DNA of 58,562 nt. Source: a bacterium (GTDB taxonomy: Bacteria; Patescibacteriota; Minisyncoccia; CAIUEV01). The stretch spans positions 1 to 58,562 of the forward strand of contig JAJXZR010000008.1 in assembly GCA_021779915.1 (NCBI GenBank), written 5' to 3'. The notes under the pieces were generated by a model. The model did not search any database and had not been told where the DNA came from. It saw only the letters and a program-made list of their open reading frames with translations. Made by a program: the position numbers and the translations under genes. This document shows, piece by piece, positions 5,324 through 58,562 of this stretch; the first letter of the stretch is position 1; every line of letters starts with the position of its first letter.

Positions 5324-5333
5324 TTGAGTAGGT

Positions 5334-5500
5334 AGAATTTTCAATTTTCAATTTACAATTTTCAATCAATTTTCAATTACAAAATTTTATAATTTTCAAA
5401 CAAAACTACATATCGTTCTTGCTACTGTATGTTGTAATAATTAGAACACTAGACGGATATTGTTTATAAAATTGAGGAATTGTAAAATTGAAAATTTAAT
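5334..5500. repeat. Intergenic foldback palindrome, same family as 734-887
   Basis: Starts tagaattttcaattttcaattt as at 731. The centre is flanked by aattttcaaac and ggatattgtttataaaatt, the same motifs as at 734-887, but with a 53-nt insert between them. Confidence 0.75.
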
Positions 5501-7185: not shown

Positions 7186-7285
7186 GTGTCATCCCCTGTA
7201 AAAGTTAACTAATTCGTTGACACTTTATTATTTTAAACATTTTTTGTGTCATCCCGTTGCTCTCTGTGTCATCCCGTTGCTCTCT
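7186..7285 (+). repeat. Array of partial MITE 5' ends (GTGTCATCCC...)
   Basis: gtgtcatcccctg...gttgacac (7186-7223), then gtgtcatcccgttgctctct twice in tandem (7246-7265, 7266-7285), directly abutting the full element at 7286. Confidence 0.8.
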
Positions 7286-7503
7286 GTGTCATCCCGGGCT
7301 TGACCCGGGATCCAGGAGGATGGAAAATTACTCTAATTGACCTAATTATACTAATTTACCTAAAAAAACACCAAATGCCAAACAATAAAATAAAATCTTA
7401 GAAATTGGTTTTTGGGATTTTGTTTAGAATAATTAGGTTAATTAATGCAATTAGAATAATTAACGAGTCTAACCTGGATCCCGGGTCAAGCCCGGGATGA
7501 CAC
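7286..7503. mobile_element. MITE-like element copy A (hairpin-containing terminal inverted repeats, subfamily 1)
   Basis: The left end gtgtcatcccgggcttgacccgggatccaggagg is the exact reverse complement of the right end cctggatcccgggtcaagcccgggatgacac. The interior gaaaattactctaattgacctaattatactaatt... is shared with copies at 48493, 28895 (inverted) and 58496. No ORF. Confidence 0.8.
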
Positions 7504-9258: not shown

Positions 9259-9416
9259 GTGGAACGGGCAGGACTCGAACGGGGAAAGGGGTCGGGAAAA
9301 CGGTAGTTTTCCCGGGGTGGAAGTATTGAAACCGCAAGGTTTCAAGGAGCAAAGCGACGTGAGATTCCTGCCTGGGACACAACGACAAAAAACCGCATAA
9401 TTATGCGGTTTTTTGC
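9259..9416 (+). ncRNA. Candidate structured RNA / attachment-site scar bracketed by tRNA 3'-end fragments, with its own terminator
   Basis: 9259-9280 gtggaacgggcaggactcgaac is the reverse complement of a tRNA T-loop plus acceptor 3' half. 9366-9382 tcctgcctgggacacaa is an exact 17-nt repeat of the tRNA-Arg 3' end (9206-9222). Between them are two perfect hairpins, cgggaaaac-ggta-gttttcccg (9293-9314) and ttgaaacc-gcaa-ggtttcaa (9326-9345, GNRA loop). A terminator aaccgcataattatgcggtt plus T-run lies at 9391-9414. Confidence 0.3.
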
Positions 9417-9509
9417 TTTTTATACTGACTAATTTTATTAAGATAAAAACAAACTCTTAGTCACCATTCTTTAATATCTTTTCTTCTATAATTTATGTTC
9501 TTATTCTGC

Positions 9510-9915
9510 TTACGCCAGAAGACAAAAAAACTGTTTTAATGAACGAATATTTTTTTTCAATACCATTGGCAATAAGTTTTCTTTTTCCTTGCCAAAAACC
9601 ATAATGTCAGGTCTAATTTTTTTAAGTTTTCTTCTAAATATATATCTTCGGTAACAAAGACATGATCGACACTTTTTAGTCCTAGCAACAGTTCCTTTCG
9701 TTGCTTAGCAGGAATAATTGGACGATTATCCCCTTTTCTTTCTTTAATACATCTATCACTATCAATACCAACAACTAAAATATCTCCGCGGGCTTTAACT
9801 TTATTTAAAATCCTAAGATGTCCAATATGAATAAGGTCAAAACACCCTCCTATTAAAACTATTTTTTACCCCTGGCTCCCCTTAATTCTTTGCAAACAAG
9901 ATCTAATGATTTCAT
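9510..9915 (-). pseudogene. Cytidylyltransferase-family (RfaE domain II / TagD-like) gene disrupted by two 1-nt frameshifts in poly-A runs
   Basis: Manual minus-strand translation gives MKSLDLVCKELRGARGKK* then, in the next frame, (K)IVLIGGCFDLIHIGHLRILNKVKARGDILVVGIDSD...RPIIPAKQRKELLLGLKSVDHVFV (nucleotidyltransferase HxGH motif CFDLIHIGH), then a second shift before IRPDIMVFGKE. The breaks fall in the A6 run (plus T-run 9862-9867) and the A7 run (plus T-run 9617-9623). It is absent from the ORF track because no piece reaches 60 aa. Confidence 0.6.
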
Positions 9916-10581: not shown

Positions 10582-11346
10582 TCATTTTGTAACCTCCAAT
10601 ACTAACATTTTGTATTGGAGATCGCCTTGTTGGTTTTTTTGAAATTGATACTTAGGATAGATTTTTTTAATCCACCTAACATTTTCCTCTGTTTTCCCTC
10701 CATGGCGAACCTCTCTTTCACAATGTCCAATTATAGAATATTTAAGTCCTTCCGCCTCAATTAATTCTACAATGGAGGGTATGGAATCTAATCTTGTTAA
10801 CACACTAAGAAAGTCAAAACAAAGAAAAACAAGTTTTCCTTTCTCTGTAAGCCTTGCTCTACATCCTTTGATTATTTTAAATATAATATCACGACCGTTG
10901 TAACCTCCATAGTCATGAGGATCTCCAGGGACAGGCATTGGCATTTGAGGAGGATTACTCACAATTAAATCAAACTTTTTTTCATTTTCAATTGAATCAA
11001 AAACATCACTTACTACAAATGAAACCGAAATTTTTTCAAGTATAGCTTTTTCCGCCCAATTAATAGCATCTTTATCGATATCGCAAGCTATTACATTATT
11101 AGCTCCTCTGGCTTTTAAATAGTAAGCCAAAAAACCGGTTTCCCCTGTTCCAATATCAAGAATATTTCCTCTAATATCATACTTACGCAAACATTCAGCT
11201 ATGAAAACTCCACTTTTAGGGACATATCCGTTTTTCTTTATTCTCAAAATTATTTCCGGTTCCTTAAGATGAAAAACTTGATTGCCCAATAAATCTTGGT
11301 GGATAACATAGCTACTGGTACTCTTTTGCGAGCTTGTTAAGTTCAT
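10582..11346 (-). CDS. SAM-dependent methyltransferase (HemK/PrmC-like small-domain family)
   Basis: Motif I ILDIGTGETGFLAYYL. Motif IV LIVSNPPQMP (NPPY-like, with Q). I place the start at the internal ATG (MNLTSS...) because the 11424 start would overlap the upstream gene by 113 nt. The start remains uncertain. Confidence 0.65.
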   Translation of the reverse strand: MNLTSSQKSTSSYVIHQDLLGNQVFHLKEPEIILRIKKNGYVPKSGVFIAECLRKYDIRGNILDIGTGETGFLAYYLKARGANNVIACDIDKDAINWAEKAILEKISVSFVVSDVFDSIENEKKFDLIVSNPPQMPMPVPGDPHDYGGYNGRDIIFKIIKGCRARLTEKGKLVFLCFDFLSVLTRLDSIPSIVELIEAEGLKYSIIGHCEREVRHGGKTEENVRWIKKIYPKYQFQKNQQGDLQYKMLVLEVTK

Positions 11347-12181
11347 TAAACCTCTCCTTTGCTTCAATATCTTTGATTCTTTTTGCAGTTCGGGCGTACG
11401 CCATAACACCTCCTTTACTGCCAATTCTATCTAAGATATCCATTGGGTAAAACAATGCATTTTCAACTAAAAATGGAGTAGCAATATCTGCCATTATGTC
11501 TTCTACTTCCTCAACTTCTTCCATTGAATAAGCTTCCTTGTTTCCAAAAAGCAATGAAATCAATACTTTTTTTCGCCTGTAAGGTATTTCTGAGATAGGT
11601 ATGCAACCCTGTGCTTCTTTAGTCAAAAATTCTCCAAATAGAAATTCCTGTTCATCTTTTAGAAGAAAACAGGAAAATTCTTCTCTAGAATAATTTCTTA
11701 CATATCTGCTAAAAAAAGCTGTCTTAATACCGCCATCTCTGAATATCTGCTCTCTTTCGAAATCGATTATGGTTATCTGCAGTTTTTCCTTGGAAAAAAT
11801 CATATTCCTTGGTGCAAAGTCCCCCCAAAGAAACCCGGACAAACGCAATTTACTAAATAGTTGTTTAAACAGAACTATCCAATCCCTTCTCTGAATATGA
11901 GAATGTTCCCTTAGAATATGTTCTAGATTATCTCCTTTAATAAACTCGGTAATGAGAACTGAATTACTCTCATCCCACCCAATTACAGGTGCGGGAATTA
12001 AAGATACCCTTATACACCCTAAACTAAGTTCTAAGGGATACTTGGCGAAATGTTTATGAGCTTTCATAATATTTCGGTATTCCGTTGCAGAAGTTATTTT
12101 TCTTACGACAAGCCTACCATCTTGTACTATATCCAGCTTGATTCTATTAGGATCGAACGATAGGACATTGAATATATTCAT
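11312..12181 (-). CDS. Protein-kinase-fold protein (Kdo/WaaP/APH-like) with extra C-terminal domain
   Basis: VVRK (ATP-binding Lys), hinge ITEFIKGDNL, catalytic-loop-like GDFAPRNMIF, metal-binding IIDFE. The ATG at 12181 is preceded by GGGAGAAG and lies 2 nt after the sulfotransferase stop. TTG at 12196 is the alternative start. Confidence 0.55.
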   Translation of the reverse strand: MNIFNVLSFDPNRIKLDIVQDGRLVVRKITSATEYRNIMKAHKHFAKYPLELSLGCIRVSLIPAPVIGWDESNSVLITEFIKGDNLEHILREHSHIQRRDWIVLFKQLFSKLRLSGFLWGDFAPRNMIFSKEKLQITIIDFEREQIFRDGGIKTAFFSRYVRNYSREEFSCFLLKDEQEFLFGEFLTKEAQGCIPISEIPYRRKKVLISLLFGNKEAYSMEEVEEVEDIMADIATPFLVENALFYPMDILDRIGSKGGVMAYARTAKRIKDIEAKERFNELNKLAKEYQ

Positions 12182-14790: not shown

Positions 14791-14819
14791 AAAAACCGCA
14801 TAAACAAGCGGTTTTTTTG
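14791..14819. terminator. Bidirectional terminator downstream of tyrS
   Basis: aaaaaccgc-ataaacaa-gcggttttttt, with A/T runs on both sides. Confidence 0.65.
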
Positions 14820-14856
14820 TTTTAAAAACTTATAATTTAGTTTTTTGAGATTCAAT

Positions 14857-22442: not shown

Positions 22443-22629
22443 AATTTTTAATTTCCAATTTCGCAATTCATCAATTTTAAAAAACACGTGTCATTCCTGC
22501 GAAGGCAGGAATCCAGAAAAGTAATATTCTATTAGTCTAATATAATTCTCCTGGATCCCGGGTCAAGCCCGGGATGACACACTAAGCGGGTATTGTTTAA
22601 AAAATTACAAAATTAAAAATTAAAAATTC
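22441..22629. repeat. Foldback palindrome of the 734-887 family with a MITE nested at its centre
   Basis: The left arm is agaatttttaatttccaatttcgcaatt. The reverse complement of the right arm is agaatttttaatttttaattttgtaatt. The centre-flanking motifs aattttaaaaaac and gggtattgtttaaaaaatt bracket the element at 22488-22580. Confidence 0.7.
22488..22580. mobile_element. MITE-like element copy B (short form, variant left hairpin)
   Basis: The left end is gtgtcattcctgcgaaggcaggaatccag and the right end is cctggatcccgggtcaagcccgggatgacac. The left stem is a different sequence (ATTCCTGC/GCAGGAAT) but is still an 8-bp hairpin. Confidence 0.75.
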
Positions 22630-24827: not shown

Positions 24828-24854
24828 AAAAAACCCCGAATCTCGGGGTTTTTT
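24828..24854 (+). terminator. Rho-independent terminator
   Basis: aaaaaaccccga-atc-tcggggtttttt. Confidence 0.7.
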
Positions 24855-24936
24855 GTTTTCTCTCTTTCCTCTTTAAACTTTCTAAACTTTCCTGCCCCGT
24901 ACCGAATGGTACTGGGGTCTAAACTCTAATATCCAA

Positions 24937-26230: not shown

Positions 26231-28864
26231 TCATTCCCCTCCAGAACCACCTGCTGATTGAGTAGCTGTGCTATCTTGATTAGGAGTTTCTTTGGCACTC
26301 TCAGGGTCAGGTTGTTGCCCGTATTTTTCCGGATCAAACCCACTAGCATCTTCAAGCATTCCTAATGCTTGATCTAGTGAAATTCCACTTGCTTGCATAG
26401 AATCCAAAAAACTTTGAGCTTCAGATCCTGACATAGAACCAATGTCTCCACCATTCCAATTCCAATTACCATTTTCACCGGTACTTACACTTGATTGTAA
26501 AGGATTCGAATCTCCACTAGTCGCAGGATTGTCTGAACCCCCAGGAGGAGTTGCCGTAGTAGGGACATCACCAGTAGTAGGAGGTGTGATACCTTCTTTA
26601 TAGGCTCCTGGGGTGTCTCCTGACACATTAATCCCTTTATCAACACCATCCCAAAAATTTTTATTCTCTGCGTCTGTTGTTGGGTCTATTTGTTTTGCTC
26701 CTGGAATTCCTGTGGTGTCACTTCTATCAGCTACTGCTCCTTGTAGACCAACTCCTCCTGCATCTTCTTGTGTTGATGACAAAGGTTTGATTGTAGCATC
26801 TGGAGAAGCATTAGATGGTGATGCGGTCGGATCATAGCCAGAAGGCGCGGTACCACTGATACTTTCTTGACCAGTATTGCTAATTGTATGTGTCGCCCCG
26901 CTACTATCAGTATAGCCTCCAGTCCCGTTGTTACCATAAGAAGAGGAGGGTGCGGTCGGATCATAGCCAGAAGGACTGCCATTCACATAAGTTTTTCCAT
27001 TTGGGTCGGTAAATACATTACCTCCCGTTTTTGGATCAAAAACATTCTGGCTCCCATCTGCCCACTTTGCAGTTATCGTTCCATCTGGATTTTTTGTTTC
27101 AGTGTAAGCCGGTGTTCCAGTTGTACTTGGTTTTTCTTGGCTCGATGGACTTCCAGGGCTTCCTTGATTACTTGGCTGTTGTTGTCCTCCTCCACCACCT
27201 CCTCCACAGCTTCCGCTACCTCCTCCACTTGATCCTCCGCCTTTGTTCATTTGATTCATCATATCCTGTAATTGCTTCATTATATCAGAATTTTGATTTT
27301 GATTTTGATTTTGATTTTGTTTATCCAGATCGATACATTGTTGGGTCATAGTTTGGGTGGGAGTACAGAGGGTGGAGGGGTTGGATTGGATAAAGCCATC
27401 AGAGCAGAGGGAATTGGGGTCGACTTGGGTGGGGTATTGGATCCAGTATTGTCCTTGGCACTGGCTGGGAGGACAAGCGACAGCTTGAAGCCGACCTTTT
27501 TTCTTAAGGTCGGTACAAGAACAACCAAAGTCGGAGCTGGTTTCGTCCATGTTAACTGATTCGCCAGAAGCAGTACTCACACATTTATCTTTGCCATTGG
27601 GGACGTTGTCGTTGTCGTTGTCTCCCGCCGCCTGATCTGCCGTAACGCATTTTCCCGTGGGATCTCCACAAGATCCATCGGGGCAAACGCATCGGTAAAC
27701 TTTAGAAATACCCGAATTAGTGTTGCTGTTGAGGTCAGTCATACTGACTGAATAAGTCATGGTGTTTTGGCTTTTACAGAAAGCCGAGCCTTGATCTGAT
27801 TGATTGTCATTAGAATTGAGATTTTTCTGGTACCAAGTTCCTCCTCCCGCTTGACAAGTGGACTTGAGTTCGATCGCATCATGGCACGATCCGTCCCCCA
27901 CACCGGCTGATCCAAAATCAATCTGACCGGCATCACAATTATCCGTTCCATTAGCGGTCACGCAAGTTCCATTGATCCACTCTCCTCCGCTGTTCACACA
28001 AGTAGTTTTATCCAGTCCAGTGGCTTCCGCCGCCTTTTGGCTCAGGACAAAGTTCATCAGGAGCAACATAAAAAGTTGCTGGGTACGCGGATCATTCATA
28101 TCGAACATCTGAGTCGGATCAGCTCCATTGGCAAGACCCAATTGAGTGGCCAGGTCAGAAGCGTTGATATTGGAATTGGATATAGTGGAACCGCTACCTG
28201 TTAGACCAAGCTGGGTGGCAAGATCTGAAGCATTGATATTTGTATTAGAGGTGATGGAATTATCATTGGTAATAATAGTTCCATCAATACTATTATTATC
28301 AGCCGCCTTCGCCTGGTTTAAAAGAAAATCCCAAAGACTTTTTCCCGCATTGCTTTGCAATTTCGGTTTGGAATTTTTTATTCCCATTTGGGAAATTACG
28401 ATGTCCTTAAGTTGGTCAAGCATATACCTTTTTCCCTGGAAAGCAGTTGCAATCTCCTTTTCCACCTGACTTTTCACGATGTTTTCTTTGTCCTTGCTGA
28501 TGGTTTTTCCGTCAGCAAAAAAGACCGAGGTAAGCGGATACCAAAAACCCTTACCAGTTTTGGTGTTTTTGAAATATTTGGGCGGAGTGATGTAAAGAAA
28601 GTCCGTGTCGCCTCCAGGAATCTTGGAAACACCTCCTGAAGGAATGGGGATTTTCACGGTTTTGCCTAAAAAACTAGCAAAATTAACCTTCTTCGCCATG
28701 TCCGCCAAATCTTGCGAAAGCACCACATTGCAACTTTGAAGATTGGAAACCACTTCTTTGATATCCTTCGTCGGATCAATCGAATCGGCTTTGGTGTTTT
28801 GAAATGGAAAAACAAGCACTAGACTCATCAAGAAACCTGGAAAAAGAAATTTTACTTTTATCAT
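26231..28864 (-). CDS. Large secreted cysteine-rich protein (N-module paralog of the 1181-aa protein) with long disordered G/S/T/P tail
   Basis: Signal peptide. FLGKTVKIPIPSGG...IPGGDTDFLYITPP, tandem SNINASDLATQLGL x2, hydrophobic helix DPRTQQLFMLLLMNFVL, a thrombospondin-type-3-like motif DNDNDNVPNGKDKC, CPPSQCQGQY, then (QN)5 and a G/S run. Confidence 0.6.
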   Translation of the reverse strand: MIKVKFLFPGFLMSLVLVFPFQNTKADSIDPTKDIKEVVSNLQSCNVVLSQDLADMAKKVNFASFLGKTVKIPIPSGGVSKIPGGDTDFLYITPPKYFKNTKTGKGFWYPLTSVFFADGKTISKDKENIVKSQVEKEIATAFQGKRYMLDQLKDIVISQMGIKNSKPKLQSNAGKSLWDFLLNQAKAADNNSIDGTIITNDNSITSNTNINASDLATQLGLTGSGSTISNSNINASDLATQLGLANGADPTQMFDMNDPRTQQLFMLLLMNFVLSQKAAEATGLDKTTCVNSGGEWINGTCVTANGTDNCDAGQIDFGSAGVGDGSCHDAIELKSTCQAGGGTWYQKNLNSNDNQSDQGSAFCKSQNTMTYSVSMTDLNSNTNSGISKVYRCVCPDGSCGDPTGKCVTADQAAGDNDNDNVPNGKDKCVSTASGESVNMDETSSDFGCSCTDLKKKGRLQAVACPPSQCQGQYWIQYPTQVDPNSLCSDGFIQSNPSTLCTPTQTMTQQCIDLDKQNQNQNQNQNSDIMKQLQDMMNQMNKGGGSSGGGSGSCGGGGGGGQQQPSNQGSPGSPSSQEKPSTTGTPAYTETKNPDGTITAKWADGSQNVFDPKTGGNVFTDPNGKTYVNGSPSGYDPTAPSSSYGNNGTGGYTDSSGATHTISNTGQESISGTAPSGYDPTASPSNASPDATIKPLSSTQEDAGGVGLQGAVADRSDTTGIPGAKQIDPTTDAENKNFWDGVDKGINVSGDTPGAYKEGITPPTTGDVPTTATPPGGSDNPATSGDSNPLQSSVSTGENGNWNWNGGDIGSMSGSEAQSFLDSMQASGISLDQALGMLEDASGFDPEKYGQQPDPESAKETPNQDSTATQSAGGSGGE

Positions 28865-28894: not shown

Positions 28895-29141
28895 ATCGAT
28901 CCAATTATTCTAATTACTCTAATTAGTCTAATTATTCTAAACAAAATCCCAAGAAAAGATTTAAGAATCACGATTTAAGATTTAAGAATATTTTTATTTT
29001 GATATTTTCCTTAAATCCTAAATCCTAAATCTTAAATCGATTTATTTACTTGGTGCTTTTTTAGGTTAATTAGTGTAATTAGGTTAATTAGAATAATTTG
29101 TTATCTTTCCTGGATCCCCAGCCGACACGCCGAGTATGCCA
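28895..29141. mobile_element. MITE-like element copy G (subfamily 1, inverted relative to copy F; one end truncated, the other degenerate)
   Basis: The interior aattattctaattactctaattagtctaattattctaaacaaaat...ttaaatcctaaatcctaaatcttaaatcgatttatttacttggtgcttttttaggttaatt is the reverse complement of the interior of 48493-48769. The right end is cctggatccccagccgacacgccgagtatgccac. It lies between the two paralogous Cys-rich loci. Confidence 0.65.
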
Positions 29142-32923: not shown

Positions 32924-33064
32924 GTGTCATCCCGGGCTTGACCCGGGATCCAGTTAAACTCATAGGATGTTAGTTTAATGCGTGTTATTAAGAAACTAAA
33001 CATAACAAAATTTTGTGAGGCTAATTCTACGCTCCTGGATCCCGGGTCAAGCCCGGGATGACAC
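32924..33064. mobile_element. MITE-like element copy C (subfamily 2)
   Basis: Perfect canonical ends gtgtcatcccgggcttgacccgggatccag / cctggatcccgggtcaagcccgggatgacac. The interior is about 90 percent identical (by eye) to the reverse complement of copy D. Confidence 0.8.
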
Positions 33065-33092: not shown

Positions 33093-34004
33093 ATGCAATC
33101 AAAAACAAAAATAAACATCTTGCTTTTTATTTTCGCTTTTTCAGCCGTGTTCGCTTTGTTTCGTTTTACTAATTTCAGTGAAAGTGGATTGGGACAATAT
33201 TTCAATGAAAAAATCACTAATTTATCAAGGATAATAAATGACAAGACTCCCGAAGCAGCTCTTAGCAATTTGGAAAAAGAAAATCTTCAAGAGTCTTTGA
33301 GTGGCGCGGTGAAGCCTCCAGAATTTTTTTGTAAAAGTACTTATTTCCCCTTGCTCTCTGGTGCTAAGTGGAATTATGAAGTCACTTCGGGAGATGATAA
33401 AGATTCTATAACTTTCGGAATACCAGCTCCTGAAAATGGAATAAATTTTTTTGATTCCATCCTTCAAAGCAAAAAAGACTGGACTGTCCGCTCGCTTTTT
33501 GTTTGTAAAGACAACAAAATAGAAATGACTGATTTAAATTTTCTCATGACCGCCTCTAAAAGCGGACTCCTCGGCGAACCCTGCACCAAGGGAGCTTATG
33601 ATTTTTTCTTGCCAACCGACCAAATGCTAGATTCTACCTATTCTTTCGAAGAAAACGGGTGCTTGAATTATAAAAAAATTGGTGAAGAAAATCAGGATTC
33701 AACAATCAAAGAAAATATTTTCTCCAAATGGAAAATTGCAGGAAACGAAGAAGTGTCAGTCCCAGCCGGAAAATTCACCACCAAAAAAATCGAAATTAAT
33801 TTTACATTAAGACAAGAGTTTTCAGGCGGAGCCAAAACCACTGAATCTAAAACTACTCTTTGGGTTGCCCAAGGAGTGGGGATTGTAAAAATACTCTCAG
33901 AAACACAAGAGGCAGGAACTAACCCAGTAAAAACTACGATTACCAAAGAAGAGCTAAGCTCATTTCAGATTCCAACGGAGGGAGATAGCAAGATTAAAAA
34001 TTAA
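33093..34004 (+). CDS. Hypothetical secreted/anchored protein, bracketed by inverted MITE copies
   Basis: N-terminal hydrophobic segment INILLFIFAFSAVFALF. No recognisable motif. The ORF starts 29 nt after copy C and ends 45 nt before copy D. Confidence 0.5.
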   Translation: MQSKTKINILLFIFAFSAVFALFRFTNFSESGLGQYFNEKITNLSRIINDKTPEAALSNLEKENLQESLSGAVKPPEFFCKSTYFPLLSGAKWNYEVTSGDDKDSITFGIPAPENGINFFDSILQSKKDWTVRSLFVCKDNKIEMTDLNFLMTASKSGLLGEPCTKGAYDFFLPTDQMLDSTYSFEENGCLNYKKIGEENQDSTIKENIFSKWKIAGNEEVSVPAGKFTTKKIEINFTLRQEFSGGAKTTESKTTLWVAQGVGIVKILSETQEAGTNPVKTTITKEELSSFQIPTEGDSKIKN

Positions 34005-34049
34005 ATTCTATAAAAATTATATTTTATCACATATAATAATAACGTTACT

Positions 34050-34190
34050 GTGTCATCCCGGGCTTGACCCGGGATCCAGGAGAATAGAATTAGCCTCACA
34101 AAATTTTGTTATGTTTAGTCTCTTAACAATACGCGTCAAACTAACATCCTATGAGACTAACTGGATCCCGGGTCAAGCCCGGGATGACAC
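34050..34190. mobile_element. MITE-like element copy D (subfamily 2, inverted relative to C)
   Basis: Perfect canonical ends. The interior is caggagaatagaattagcctcacaaaattttgttatgtttag...catcctatgagactaactgg. Confidence 0.8.
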
Positions 34191-34346
34191 GGAGTGAAAA
34201 TTAAAAATTCTCTCCCAAGTAGACTTTTCTATTTTTTTGTATTTTATTTAAACGGTAGGGCAAATCTTGTGCTTCTATATTGTTTTTTGTGAATAATTTC
34301 TTATTCGATTACGTGAAAGACAATCTAAAAATTAAATTCGAGACCA

Positions 34347-35977: not shown

Positions 35978-36152
35978 GTGTCATCCTTGCGACCGCGTGT
36001 CGCCTTAGCTTTAGCGGTGGCACAAAGCGAGGATCCAGGAGAATTTTATTAGTCTAACAAAATGTTCTTTTGTTTAGTTTTTTACAAATATACACTAAAA
36101 TAACATTCTGTGAGACTAACTGGATCCCCGGTCGACACGCCAGGGATGACAC
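35978..36152. mobile_element. MITE-like element copy E (subfamily 2, variant hairpins)
   Basis: The left end gtgtcatccttgcg...(36-nt loop insertion)...cgaggatccaggag. The right end ctggatccccggtcgacacgccagggatgacac. The interior end ttctgtgagactaactgg matches copies C and D. Confidence 0.7.
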
Positions 36153-36226: not shown

Positions 36227-36736
36227 TTAAGGGCTAACGCAAGAATCCAAGGTATCACAGCGACACCCTTTAGTGCTGTCACAAATAAAATTAGAAGCAC
36301 TTGGATTAGTATAACCAGCAACAGTAAAACTATAGGTAGAATTAACTGAAGTAGCAGTAAAACTTGAAACCCACTTACCAGTCGCATCACAACTGGCAGT
36401 ATTTGTGCCAACAGTTGCAGTATAGGTCAAAGAGTTAGAACAATTAGGAATCTGAGCATATTCCGTTGATCTTGCAACTGGATTTGTGTCTGAACAAGCG
36501 ATACTCAAATAAGCCCCACCAGCAGTTAAAGTACCCATTACAGTTCTACACCCATCAGCTGCTGCTTGTTCTATAGCACTTGTAAAGGAATTAGCATCCG
36601 CTTTCGCCTTCGCTCCAGCCGCTTTTTTTCTCCCTCCTGAAACACTCACCACCACAATCGTAGCAAGGATTCCAATAATCAGCACAACTACCAACATTTC
36701 AATAAGGGTAAACCCTTTTCCGCTTTTAGTCTTCAT
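36227..36736 (-). CDS. Type IV pilin / pseudopilin (N-terminal methylation motif)
   Basis: MKTKSGKG|FTLIEMLVVVLIIGILA is a class III signal peptide. C-terminal Cys residues are present. Confidence 0.8.
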   Translation of the reverse strand: MKTKSGKGFTLIEMLVVVLIIGILATIVVVSVSGGRKKAAGAKAKADANSFTSAIEQAAADGCRTVMGTLTAGGAYLSIACSDTNPVARSTEYAQIPNCSNSLTYTATVGTNTASCDATGKWVSSFTATSVNSTYSFTVAGYTNPSASNFICDSTKGCRCDTLDSCVSP

Positions 36737-36770
36737 TTTTATATTTTAAAAATATCAACGATCGGTGAGT

Positions 36771-37310
36771 TTAGAAACTATCACAATCTCCTGCTGTCCC
36801 TGAAGAACAAACGCATCCCGAATTAGTACACGTATATGTCGCAGAATTCTTGAGACCGGAAACCTGCAAAGTATAATTGATTGTCGTGCTTGTGTTAGGA
36901 CAAGTACCTGAAGCAGTCCAGCTAGAGGTGGTTCCTGTATTGATACAAGTCCCTACTGTAAGGCTGTATCCGCCGATAGTTGGGAGCTGAATGGTTGCAT
37001 AATTAACACCGCCACAGGAAAGAACAGTCCCATTTCCTGAGTTTGTGAAAGTAAAATTTGTACAACCCTCAATAGAATTAGCTTTCTCTATCGAGTCCTT
37101 CATTTGACCCATGTCAGCCTTTGCCCTCGCAGCATTAGCTTTTTGTCTAGCACCCGCCACTGAATAAATAACTATCGCAGCTAAAATTCCAATAATAACG
37201 ATAACAACCAACATTTCGATAAGGGTAAAACCTTTACTCGTTTTCTTTTTTTTTATTTTAGGTTTTACCTTACTACAACAACCACACTTTTTACTAGTTT
37301 TTACACCCAT
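36771..37310 (-). CDS. Type IV pilin / pseudopilin with unusually long Lys/Cys-rich leader
   Basis: MGVKTSKKCGCCSKVKPKIKKKKTSKG|FTLIEMLVVIVIIGILA. The ATG at 37310 is the only canonical in-frame start upstream of the G|F cleavage motif. Confidence 0.75.
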   Translation of the reverse strand: MGVKTSKKCGCCSKVKPKIKKKKTSKGFTLIEMLVVIVIIGILAAIVIYSVAGARQKANAARAKADMGQMKDSIEKANSIEGCTNFTFTNSGNGTVLSCGGVNYATIQLPTIGGYSLTVGTCINTGTTSSWTASGTCPNTSTTINYTLQVSGLKNSATYTCTNSGCVCSSGTAGDCDSF

Positions 37311-37427
37311 TTGATTTTGTTATTTATTAAATGGTTTTTTATTTTAACTGCAACAACACTTGAATTAATTATCTTTTTATAATTTAATTTGTCAAATTTA
37401 TTAAATTTAGTGGTTTAATTAAAAAAC

Positions 37428-37458
37428 AAAAACCGCACTTACGCACGGTTTTTGTTTT
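37428..37458 (-). terminator. Terminator immediately after the 135-aa pilin gene
   Basis: Minus strand aaaaaccgtgc-gtaa-gtgcggttttt followed by a T-run. An internal operon terminator after a pilin gene is the usual signature of the major pilin. Confidence 0.55.
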
Positions 37459-37518
37459 TTTGTACTCCTAAAATTTGATATGTCTTATAAGACTTATACG
37501 ACTTACATTTAGAAGGAG

Positions 37519-37926
37519 TTATGGGCAGACAGTGGCTGTACCAATCGTGGCAGCTTCCGCCTTGGAAGCCCCCGTAGAATCGACACACCAATAACCTGCT
37601 CCGGCACCTACCAAGGCAGCTTCAGCCGCCCAAGCAGATGCTGAATCATTACAAGCAAAAGCTGTTCCACCTGAACTTGTCACCCCAGTTGAAATTTTAG
37701 CGGCTTCCGCATCACTACACCAACCGGTATATGTTTGACCATTATCTTCGCTGAACATTTCACCGGCGGATCTGAGCTGAGCCATCTGAGCTTTAACGGC
37801 TCCATTTTTTCCTTTATTTCTTGCAGTATTCAATGAAACCATAACAATTGCCGCCAAAATTCCAATAATGGCAACAACTACCAAAAGCTCCATCAGGGTA
37901 AAACCATTTTTATTCTTATATTTCAT
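37519..37926 (-). CDS. Type IV pilin, probable major pilin
   Basis: MKYKNKNG|FTLMELLVVVAIIGILAAI. Small (135 aa), first pilin gene after pilC, followed by its own terminator. C-terminal Cys pair. Confidence 0.8.
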   Translation of the reverse strand: MKYKNKNGFTLMELLVVVAIIGILAAIVMVSLNTARNKGKNGAVKAQMAQLRSAGEMFSEDNGQTYTGWCSDAEAAKISTGVTSSGGTAFACNDSASAWAAEAALVGAGAGYWCVDSTGASKAEAATIGTATVCP

Positions 37927-48492: not shown

Positions 48493-48769
48493 GTGTCATC
48501 CCGGGCTTGACCCGGGATCCAGGAGAGTAGAAAATTACTCTAATTGACCTAATTATACTAATTAACCTAAAAAAGCACCAACTAAATAAATCGATTTAAG
48601 ATTTAGGATTTAAGGAAAATATCAAAATAAAAATATTCTTAAATCTTAAATCTTTTCTTAGAATTTTGTTTAGAATAACCTGCCTGCCGGTAGGCAGATT
48701 AGGTTAATTAGAGTAATTAGAATAATTAGTGAGACTAACCTAGATCCCGGGTCAAGTCCGGGATGACAC
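48493..48769. mobile_element. MITE-like element copy F (subfamily 1, long form)
   Basis: The left end is gtgtcatcccgggcttgacccgggatccaggag. The right end is cctagatcccgggtcaagtccgggatgacac. The interior carries its own word palindrome (gatttaagatttaggatttaagg...cttaaatcttaaatc) and a ctgcct-gccggt-aggcag hairpin. Confidence 0.8.
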
Positions 48770-58495: not shown

Positions 58496-58562
58496 GTGTC
58501 ACCCCGGACTCCGAGCTGGGATCCAGGAGGATAGAAAATTACTCTAATTATACTAATTATAC
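58496..58562. mobile_element. MITE-like element copy H (subfamily 1; runs off the window)
   Basis: gtgtcaccccggactccgagctgggatccaggaggatagaaaattactctaattatactaatt has a variant hairpin (CCCGG/CTGGG with a G-T pair) followed by the subfamily-1 interior. Confidence 0.7.

Follow-up and report, generated by a model that had tools for sequence, protein, structure and literature searches.

The window analyzed here, a 58,562-nt stretch of DNA from a member of the Moranbacteria (Patescibacteria), contains a real family of hairpin-ended, non-coding elements that are gained and lost between relatives. Judged by their sequence, the terminal hairpins are Ssn-related motifs (SRMs), or CGTC/TGTC-tagged REPs, a family that was already described in 2013 and 2025 and that is found here in a candidate-phyla-radiation (CPR) genome. 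Each element is a tag-outward ("head-to-head") SRM dimer around a lineage-specific spacer, and the elements are neither classical MITEs nor RAYT-type REPs. We think it likely that these SRM-spacer-SRM units are counterparts of the ssn nuclease cassette that lack ssn and are multiplied in trans by nicking followed by copy-repair or recombination. Arrays of truncated motif heads and the identity of the motif across phyla offer leads to how SRMs spread here.

Elements in the window and their absence from relatives

Eight intergenic, non-coding elements of 93 to 277 bp were found in the window, with inverted ends of the form GTGTCAT-stem-loop-stem-ATCCAGG. All ten intervals that the sequence-only reading had named as copies or fragments of a hairpin-ended family hold the sequence described for them. 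The 21-mer palindromic core ATCCCGGGCTTGACCCGGGAT occurs nine times (eight exact, one with a single mismatch) and was absent from 100 dinucleotide shuffles. With up to one mismatch, the head GTGTCATYCC has 20 matches in the window against 4.1 expected, and 16 of the 20 lie within elements. There are seven tag-outward dimers in the window. The individual features are as follows, with the strand given where one applies.

7186..7223: decayed mini-unit GTGTCATCCCC...GTTGACAC, a head and an inverted head with the stem gone, as read from the sequence
7246..7285, plus strand: tandem pair of the same 20-bp unit, GTGTCATCCCG + TTGCTCTCT, each a truncated SRM head with spacer; a full SRM follows immediately
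7286..7503: element A1, 218 bp, in which two canonical SRMs form a tag-outward homodimer around an AT-rich, partly palindromic interior
7287-7315 (plus strand) and 7474-7502 (minus strand): the two SRMs of A1, canonical
22488..22580: element C, 93 bp, a heterodimer; left SRM with stem ATTCCTGC and loop GAAG, right SRM canonical
28895..29141: A-type element, incomplete; runs opposite to A2, with which it shares 77% identity; left SRM missing, right end decayed
32924..33064: element B1, 141 bp, canonical SRM homodimer; interior inverted relative to B2; missing in L107 and L108
34050..34190: element B2, 141 bp, canonical SRM homodimer; missing at the orthologous site in L107 and L109
35873..35927, plus strand: fragment with the 3' half of an SRM only, CTTGACCCGGGATCCAGG; a similar solo half-SRM lies at the orthologous site of L107
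35978..36152: element B3, 175 bp; missing in L108
B3, left SRM: 8-bp stem including a single T.G pair; the loop holds a structured insert of 36 nt
B3, right SRM: ATCCCTGG-CGTGTCGA-CCGGGGAT
48493..48769: element A2, 277 bp, in the spacer that separates EF-G from atpC; right SRM with one stem mismatch and the tail CTAG
58496..58562: element A3, truncated where the window stops (complete length ~240 bp), with two decayed SRMs

Element A1 is bounded by GTGTCATCCCGGGCTTGACCCGGGATCCAGG and its reverse complement, and B1 and B2 bracket a DUF3108-like gene (33093-34004). Two of the listed copies needed qualification. The interval 28895-29141 is indeed A-type, but it is only a partial, inverted copy of 48493-48769 without a left hairpin. 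The copy at 58496 is present up to the window end, and the complete element of ~240 bp lies on a metagenome contig that is 100% identical (L085, about 9666-9907). L110 is another contig of this species, and same-species contigs are found in GCA_021833695.1 and GCA_027428295.1.

The interiors fall into two families, A and B, each conserved among the copies in the window, plus the one short heterodimer C, so that the two subfamilies proposed earlier are borne out. Neither the A nor the B interior had a significant match in ~0.8 Mb of loci from other genomes; by sequence comparison, the interiors are specific to this lineage. The elements also lack coding capacity, as had been claimed. All copies lie between ORFs of at least 90 aa, the ORFs listed within them do not exceed 51 aa and run across the hairpins, and no gene is called inside them in the same-species contigs. 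Both orientations occur, and the spacers that hold the copies may be convergent, divergent, or co-directional. Adjoining genes have ordinary housekeeping roles; they include gatA, RNase Y, EF-G, and atpC, as well as an AmmeMemoRadiSam fusion and an L,D-transpeptidase. The G+C content of the window is 34% to 45%, and whole elements can be folded as long single-stranded DNA hairpins.

We compared the window with L107, L108, and L109, relatives that share its gene order. Four orthologous sites were empty in L107, L108, or L109, so the suggested check on presence and absence among relatives came out in favor of gain and loss. The spacer upstream of the DUF3108-like gene measures 302 bp in the window versus 80 bp in L107, the spacer between this gene and RNase Y 342 bp versus 75 to 76 bp in L107 and L109, that between RNase Y and the pilin gene 359 bp versus 81 bp in L108, and that between EF-G and atpC 375 bp versus 31 bp in L109. 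In L107, the spacer between RNase Y and the pilin gene retains a solo half-SRM. Non-coding SRM dimers are thus gained and lost between relatives. The only polymorphism within the species concerns A1: L110 carries this element twice, as identical 218-bp copies in direct order on either side of a 345-bp segment, whereas it occurs once in the window. Recombination between the copies could account for this difference, as could an assembly collapse across identical 218-bp repeats.

Between its two A1 copies, L110 contains an uncalled 67-aa ORF (11206-11409) with two hydrophobic, membrane-type segments, which is missing in the window. In L108, at about 1745-1900 (orthologous to window 34005-34346), a long perfect palindrome, AAATCCTTTGAAAAACAAAAAGCTGAGGTGCTAC..., unrelated to the elements, occupies the spacer of B2, a place that appears to have taken up insertions more than once. 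The window also has another intergenic repeat family, with AATTTTCAATTT-type units, at 726-819 and 5327-5420 (74% identical), and a near-identical copy lies upstream of the DUF3108-like gene in L108 (about 650-760), at a place where the window has an SRM element.

Identity and structure of the terminal hairpins

Di Nocera, De Gregorio and Rocco (2013; PMC3733652) defined CGTC-tagged REPs by the tag CGTC, often TGTC (or CCTC), an 8-9-bp stem whose opening pairs are A-T and T-A, a 4- or 5-nt loop, and an unpaired CCA tail. This family, in which tag-outward (HH) homo- and heterodimers with conserved spacers predominate, includes the Neisseria dRS3 and the Rickettsia RPE-4 and RPE-6 (PMC3733652). 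Chenal et al. (2025; PMC11893778) extended dRS3 to a 28-nt sequence, NTS, and generalized it as the SRM. Using the published pattern, HGTCWYN(0-2)YYVSBRHN(0-5)WNVSBRGN(0-2)RNCYNB (PMC11893778), we obtained 10 hits in the window, whereas 100 dinucleotide shuffles averaged 0.09 hits and never gave more than 1. The tag (G)TGTCA is present in 13 of the 14 head-bearing element ends and in three truncated heads at 7186-7285; the decayed end at 29141 reads TGGCA instead. Stem, loop, and tail take the forms ATCCCGGG-CTTGA-CCCGGGAT-CCA and ATTCCTGC-GAAG-GCAGGAAT-CCA, with some ends variant or decayed. The ends therefore share with CGTC-tagged REPs the TGTC tag, the 8-bp stem with its A-T and T-A opening, the loop of 4 to 5 nt, and the CCA tail.

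The resemblance extends to the (C/T)GTC-tagged HH dimers of the 2013 paper as whole, intergenic units, but the present host belongs to a phylum outside the five listed there, and the present spacers are 32 to 215 bp long and partly palindromic, versus a typical 20 to 100 bp (PMC3733652). As in the NTS/SRM study, the hairpins fit a degenerate pattern and are directional through their unpaired flanks, and a motif identical to the present one brackets ssn genes in other genomes; they differ from NTS in stem (CCCGGG versus TCCCGCG) and loop (CTTGA versus MAV), and in that no ssn gene was found in ~72 kb of this organism (PMC11893778). The main text of that study is without mention of Patescibacteria, MITEs, or tandem duplications. 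The NIMEs of Neisseria (dRS3-RS-dRS3; Bentley et al. 2007, PMC1797815) are similar in that inverted hairpins flank lower-GC segments of 50 to 150 bp, of several families, which adjoin and sometimes bracket genes. The present units are mostly isolated, without the long arrays of NIMEs in the window; NIMEs were stated as not seen outside Neisseria (PMC1797815). REPIN/BIME-RAYT systems (Bertels and Rainey 2011, PMC3116915) also replicate as inverted doublets of a tagged hairpin that is recognized as ssDNA, with one small repeat-flanked gene as the presumed mobilizer. They differ in their GTAG tag, in the HUH/Y1 fold of their enzyme versus GIY-YIG here, and in the vertical inheritance of RAYTs, whereas ssn cassettes look horizontally mobile.

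For covariation, hairpins were picked by their unpaired flanks only (GTCAT...ATCC) from ~0.8 Mb of loci. Paired cells made up 91% of the alignment for 5-nt loops and 90% for 4-nt loops, with 24 and 16 compensatory cells, respectively. The observed pairing and compensation were reached in 0 of 500 shuffles, and the signal collapsed once partner columns were slid. The SRM hairpin is under structural constraint and its stem covariation is strong, so the earlier observation that structure is kept while sequence changes holds across a much wider set. In the window itself, three compensated pairs separate the left end of element C (ATTCCTGC/GCAGGAAT) from the canonical stem, and this end folds well (z -4.9). 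The 35978 end keeps its outer stem around the 36-nt loop insert (z -1.7), and a single wobble or mismatch is present in the folds of the 36152 and 48769 ends. Three ends, among them 58496 and 29141, fold no better than shuffles. The claim that variant ends keep the hairpin is thus right for 22488 and 35978, but not for 58496 and 29141, and several decayed ends of the window may be inert.

G-T pairs had been read as wobbles pointing to an RNA form. Among 75 distinct hairpins, 12 mismatches were G.T and 10 A.C (P = 0.83), a balance that does not support the wobble argument, and SsnA acts on ssDNA and not on RNA (PMC11893778). The comparison was meant to reveal any selection on one strand, and it lent no support to an RNA or single-strand-specific signature. 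Separately, many SRM loops in various phyla (e.g. L120, L131, L168, and L176, and window 35978-36039) carry structured inserts of 15 to 40 nt with the outer 8-bp stem kept; the loop seems to be a favored spot for nested insertions.

Distribution of the motif and the ssn nuclease

SsnA, a single-domain GIY-YIG nuclease (94 aa, cd10448), binds the hairpin as ssDNA only, ignoring dsDNA and RNA. It recognizes the sequence of the stem as well as two unpaired parts, the GTC tag and the C tail, and cuts the SRM-bearing strand a few nucleotides 5' of the tag (PMC11893778). Homologues of ssnA are flanked by SRMs, and in N. meningitidis SsnA lowers transformation by NTS-carrying DNA (PMC11893778). Chenal et al. 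likened NTS-ssnA-NTS to an insertion sequence, whose mobility was not shown there, and only raised the idea of Ssn-driven SRM multiplication (PMC11893778).

We scanned one genome per species for the exact 30-mer. The matches listed span more than 10 phyla, among them Azam-, Lipton-, Morani-, Vogel-, and Doudnabacteria within the Patescibacteria; Cloacimonadota, Omnitrophota, Planctomycetota, Binatia, Rhodothermales, Nitrospinales, and Bdellovibrionales; and Alpha-, Beta-, Gamma-, and Deltaproteobacteria, with the cultured Ramlibacter and Limnohabitans among them. An identical 30-nt motif is common to Patescibacteria, Planctomycetota, Chloroflexota, and Proteobacteria. The sequence-only reading had placed the design in many low-GC bacterial genomes. 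It is widespread, but Ramlibacter, Binatia, and Planctomycetota have it as well. At the 30-mer loci, an inverted hairpin typically follows 5 to 60 nt further on, with the same unpaired flanks and a different stem.

In a Moraniibacteriota contig (L051), the motif stands 3 nt before the ATG of a 96-aa ORF and the inverted motif follows right after the stop. The same layout was seen in L004, L053, L033 (frameshifted), and L048 (with a different stem type). The identical 30-mer bounds GIY-YIG genes in L051, L004, and L113, as well as the frameshifted copy in L033; in L053 it marks the 5' end of the GIY-YIG gene and a stem variant marks the 3' end. The 96-aa ORF between the SRMs is a GIY-YIG domain (Pfam PF01541, E = 8e-18) and a putative Ssn; we found no NCBIfam model or PDB entry for Ssn.

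To this we can add 80 loci of ssn homologues from some twenty phyla, drawn by protein similarity and independent of the 30-mer scans. Tag-outward SRMs lay within 200 nt on both sides of the gene in 57 of them, on one side in 16, and on neither side in 7. The 57 loci bracketed on both sides agree with the published flanking of ssnA (PMC11893778). The family comprises at least 7,958 clusters at E <= 1e-10, and its proteins are 60% to 75% identical between phyla. By comparison, RNase Y of the window is 57% to 62% identical to that of other Moranbacteria or the Parcubacteria group, with metagenomic relatives at 76% to 90%, which places the source of the window in the Patescibacteria (CPR). Ssn proteins are therefore more alike between phyla than RNase Y is within Moranbacteria, which suggests horizontal transfer; from these protein identities, we would argue for a horizontal spread of the ssn cassette. 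Among 2.9 million viral contigs, only 1 exact SRM and 28 ssn relatives were present, so phages are no obvious vector. The rarity of the cassette in phage-like sequence stands beside its apparent horizontal spread.

An HMM built from 120 Ssn proteins (E <= 1e-3) detected no ssn ORF in the ~72 kb of six-frame ORFs from the window, L085, and L110, so a cognate enzyme is assumed for this organism. In the genome collection searched, a lineage-specific pattern of SRM plus GGAG matched no contig of this species, and RNase Y had no close relative. The closest Ssn proteins, traced in three cases, were on contigs of other organisms with a GC content of 33% to 48%. A descent of the elements from an ssn cassette was also considered. 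By eye, the inner ends of the elements read ...CCAG-RBS-ATG and TAA-CCTGG..., but local alignments between interiors and cassettes were no better than shuffles, with one weak case (18/500). Without significant similarity of the interiors to ssn cassettes, descent by internal deletion is unsupported and was rejected.

The remark that such hairpins leak into annotation was apt: the C-terminus of P0133, an annotated Ssn protein, reads ...RVRPGMT. In the Ssn alignment (columns 99-118), this protein has a C-terminal extension, ...SGFRVRPGMTRE, that is a read-through into the downstream hairpin.

Head arrays, a proposed mechanism, and alternatives

The positions 7246-7285, directly 5' of A1, consist of two identical 20-mers, each with 11 nt of head and 9 nt of non-element spacer. 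Stacked 5' ends at this place had been taken for a repeatedly used insertion site. They are instead a 20-bp tandem duplication that includes flanking spacer, and the same footprint is found family-wide, so they give no evidence of several independent insertions. At the 30-mer loci, 23 of 235 full SRMs had one or two head copies within 60 nt upstream and none had one downstream; a few of the 23 are adjacent full motifs and not truncated heads. The upstream heads were mostly 17 to 25 nt off, often with the spacer repeated too. The sample drawn independently through ssn gave upstream heads at 19 of 301 SRMs and none downstream, with units mostly of 18 to 23 nt and up to four or five units (L123, L144, L151). 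Head arrays lie 5' of about 6% to 8% of SRMs across phyla, on the side where SsnA cuts. The main texts of PMC3733652 and PMC11893778 do not mention tandem or truncated head arrays.

We propose that the non-coding SRM-spacer-SRM units are counterparts of the ssn cassette without ssn. Their maintenance and multiplication would take place in trans: SRMs exposed as ssDNA during replication or DNA uptake would be nicked, after which copy-repair or recombination between SRMs would follow, with no cut-and-paste transposition. The nick 5' of the tag would prime displacement synthesis, which may stall in the SRM hairpin; religation of the displaced flap would then duplicate the interval and produce the 18-23-bp tandem arrays of truncated 5' heads. 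Alternatively, head arrays may form when a donor fragment, cleaved on the 5' side of the SRM it carries, joins a target SRM broken in its 5' arm. A side effect would be restriction or trimming of incoming motif-bearing ssDNA, as shown in Neisseria. Such nick-and-copy multiplication would explain why target-site duplications (TSDs) are absent, why interiors are mosaic, and why solo motifs, half motifs, and tandem head arrays occur. More tentatively, and with doubt prevailing, SRM-bounded units with or without ssn could form a distinct class of mobile DNA whose sole enzyme is a 95-aa GIY-YIG single-strand nuclease in place of a DDE, HUH/Y1, serine/tyrosine, or Cas1-type enzyme. Such units would multiply by nick-primed copying from hairpin to hairpin, leave head arrays with 18-23-bp units as their footprint, and spread horizontally over more than 20 phyla, the reduced genomes of Patescibacteria included.

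The best surviving of the other explanations treats the repeats as passive landing pads. It can point to dRS3, which is used in this way in Neisseria (PMC1797815), and to the large inserts inside SRM loops here and elsewhere; no recombinase or IS110 gene was seen in or near the window, however, and the motif's own multiplication would be left unexplained. We hold it to be unlikely as an account of the family, and it is compatible with SRM nicking and copying rather than exclusive of it.

It is very unlikely that the elements are host-serving structures with no current mobility, acting as RNA stabilizers, terminators, or protein-binding DNA sites. GC-rich stems in an AT-rich genome, intergenic location, and covariation would suit such a role, but several observations speak against it: both orientations in convergent, divergent, and co-directional spacers, absence from the same spacers in relatives of the same gene order, and balanced G.T and A.C mismatches. 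In addition, no T-run follows the stem, the hairpins continuing with CCAGGAG, and in an Rfam search of the window only a tRNA reached the threshold, with no family matching the elements.

We give still less credence to a classical MITE, that is, a deletion derivative of an IS moved in trans by a DDE transposase through 31-bp terminal inverted repeats. The flanks of the six complete copies contain no direct repeats that would mark a TSD, and no transposase is annotated in the window or its flanks, in agreement with the sequence-only reading, which had nevertheless called the family MITE-like. Terminal inverted repeats, a length below 300 bp, multiple non-coding copies, presence and absence among relatives, and the folding of the whole element into a long hairpin are all MITE traits. 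The supposed terminal repeat, however, is also found alone, as halves, and with different partners, and the gene between the same ends elsewhere encodes a GIY-YIG nuclease of 95 aa, not a transposase. The lack of TSDs and the nature of this gene argue that the elements are not classical MITEs. Least probable of all is mobilization as a REP or REPIN by a RAYT (Y1, IS200/IS605-like) transposase: the tagged hairpin, the inverted doublets with conserved spacers, and the ssDNA hairpin logic match (PMC3733652, PMC3116915), but the tag is TGTC/CGTC and not GTAG, CGTC REPs were reported with "no dedicated transposase" of the tyrosine type (PMC3733652), no Y1 gene was seen in the window annotation, and ssn is the bracketed gene wherever SRMs were seen on one or both sides (73 of 80 loci).

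For annotation, we recommend that such hairpins be labeled SRMs (CGTC-type REPs) and not MITEs, tiny ORFs, or false protein C-termini. Beyond the 2013 and 2025 papers, the present data add the identical 30-nt motif across phyla together with the 60% to 75% Ssn identity, the gain and loss of non-coding dimers between close relatives in a CPR genome, and the 18-23-bp head arrays on the SsnA-cut side, which offer a testable handle on repeat multiplication. A reliance on DNA uptake has been proposed for Patescibacteria; should it hold, motif-tied restriction or trimming of ssDNA could shape what they acquire.

Several other features of the window were recorded. Three adjacent pilin-like genes (36227-37926) share an N-terminal (N-methyl) segment, which forms the repeat family D3 (36654, 37171, and 37844); they are followed by T2SSF/T2SSE-type genes, so that a type IV pilus or competence-like cluster adjoins SRM elements. 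Short GC hairpins, AAAAACCGC...GCGGTTTTTT, flanked by an A-run and a T-run (9388-9435, 14791-14838, 24828-24875, and 37428-37475), resemble ordinary bidirectional intrinsic terminators and have no relation to the SRM family. Finally, a TTTTGA tandem repeat with a period of 6 or 12 (27279-27330) lies inside an 877-aa ORF (26231-28864).
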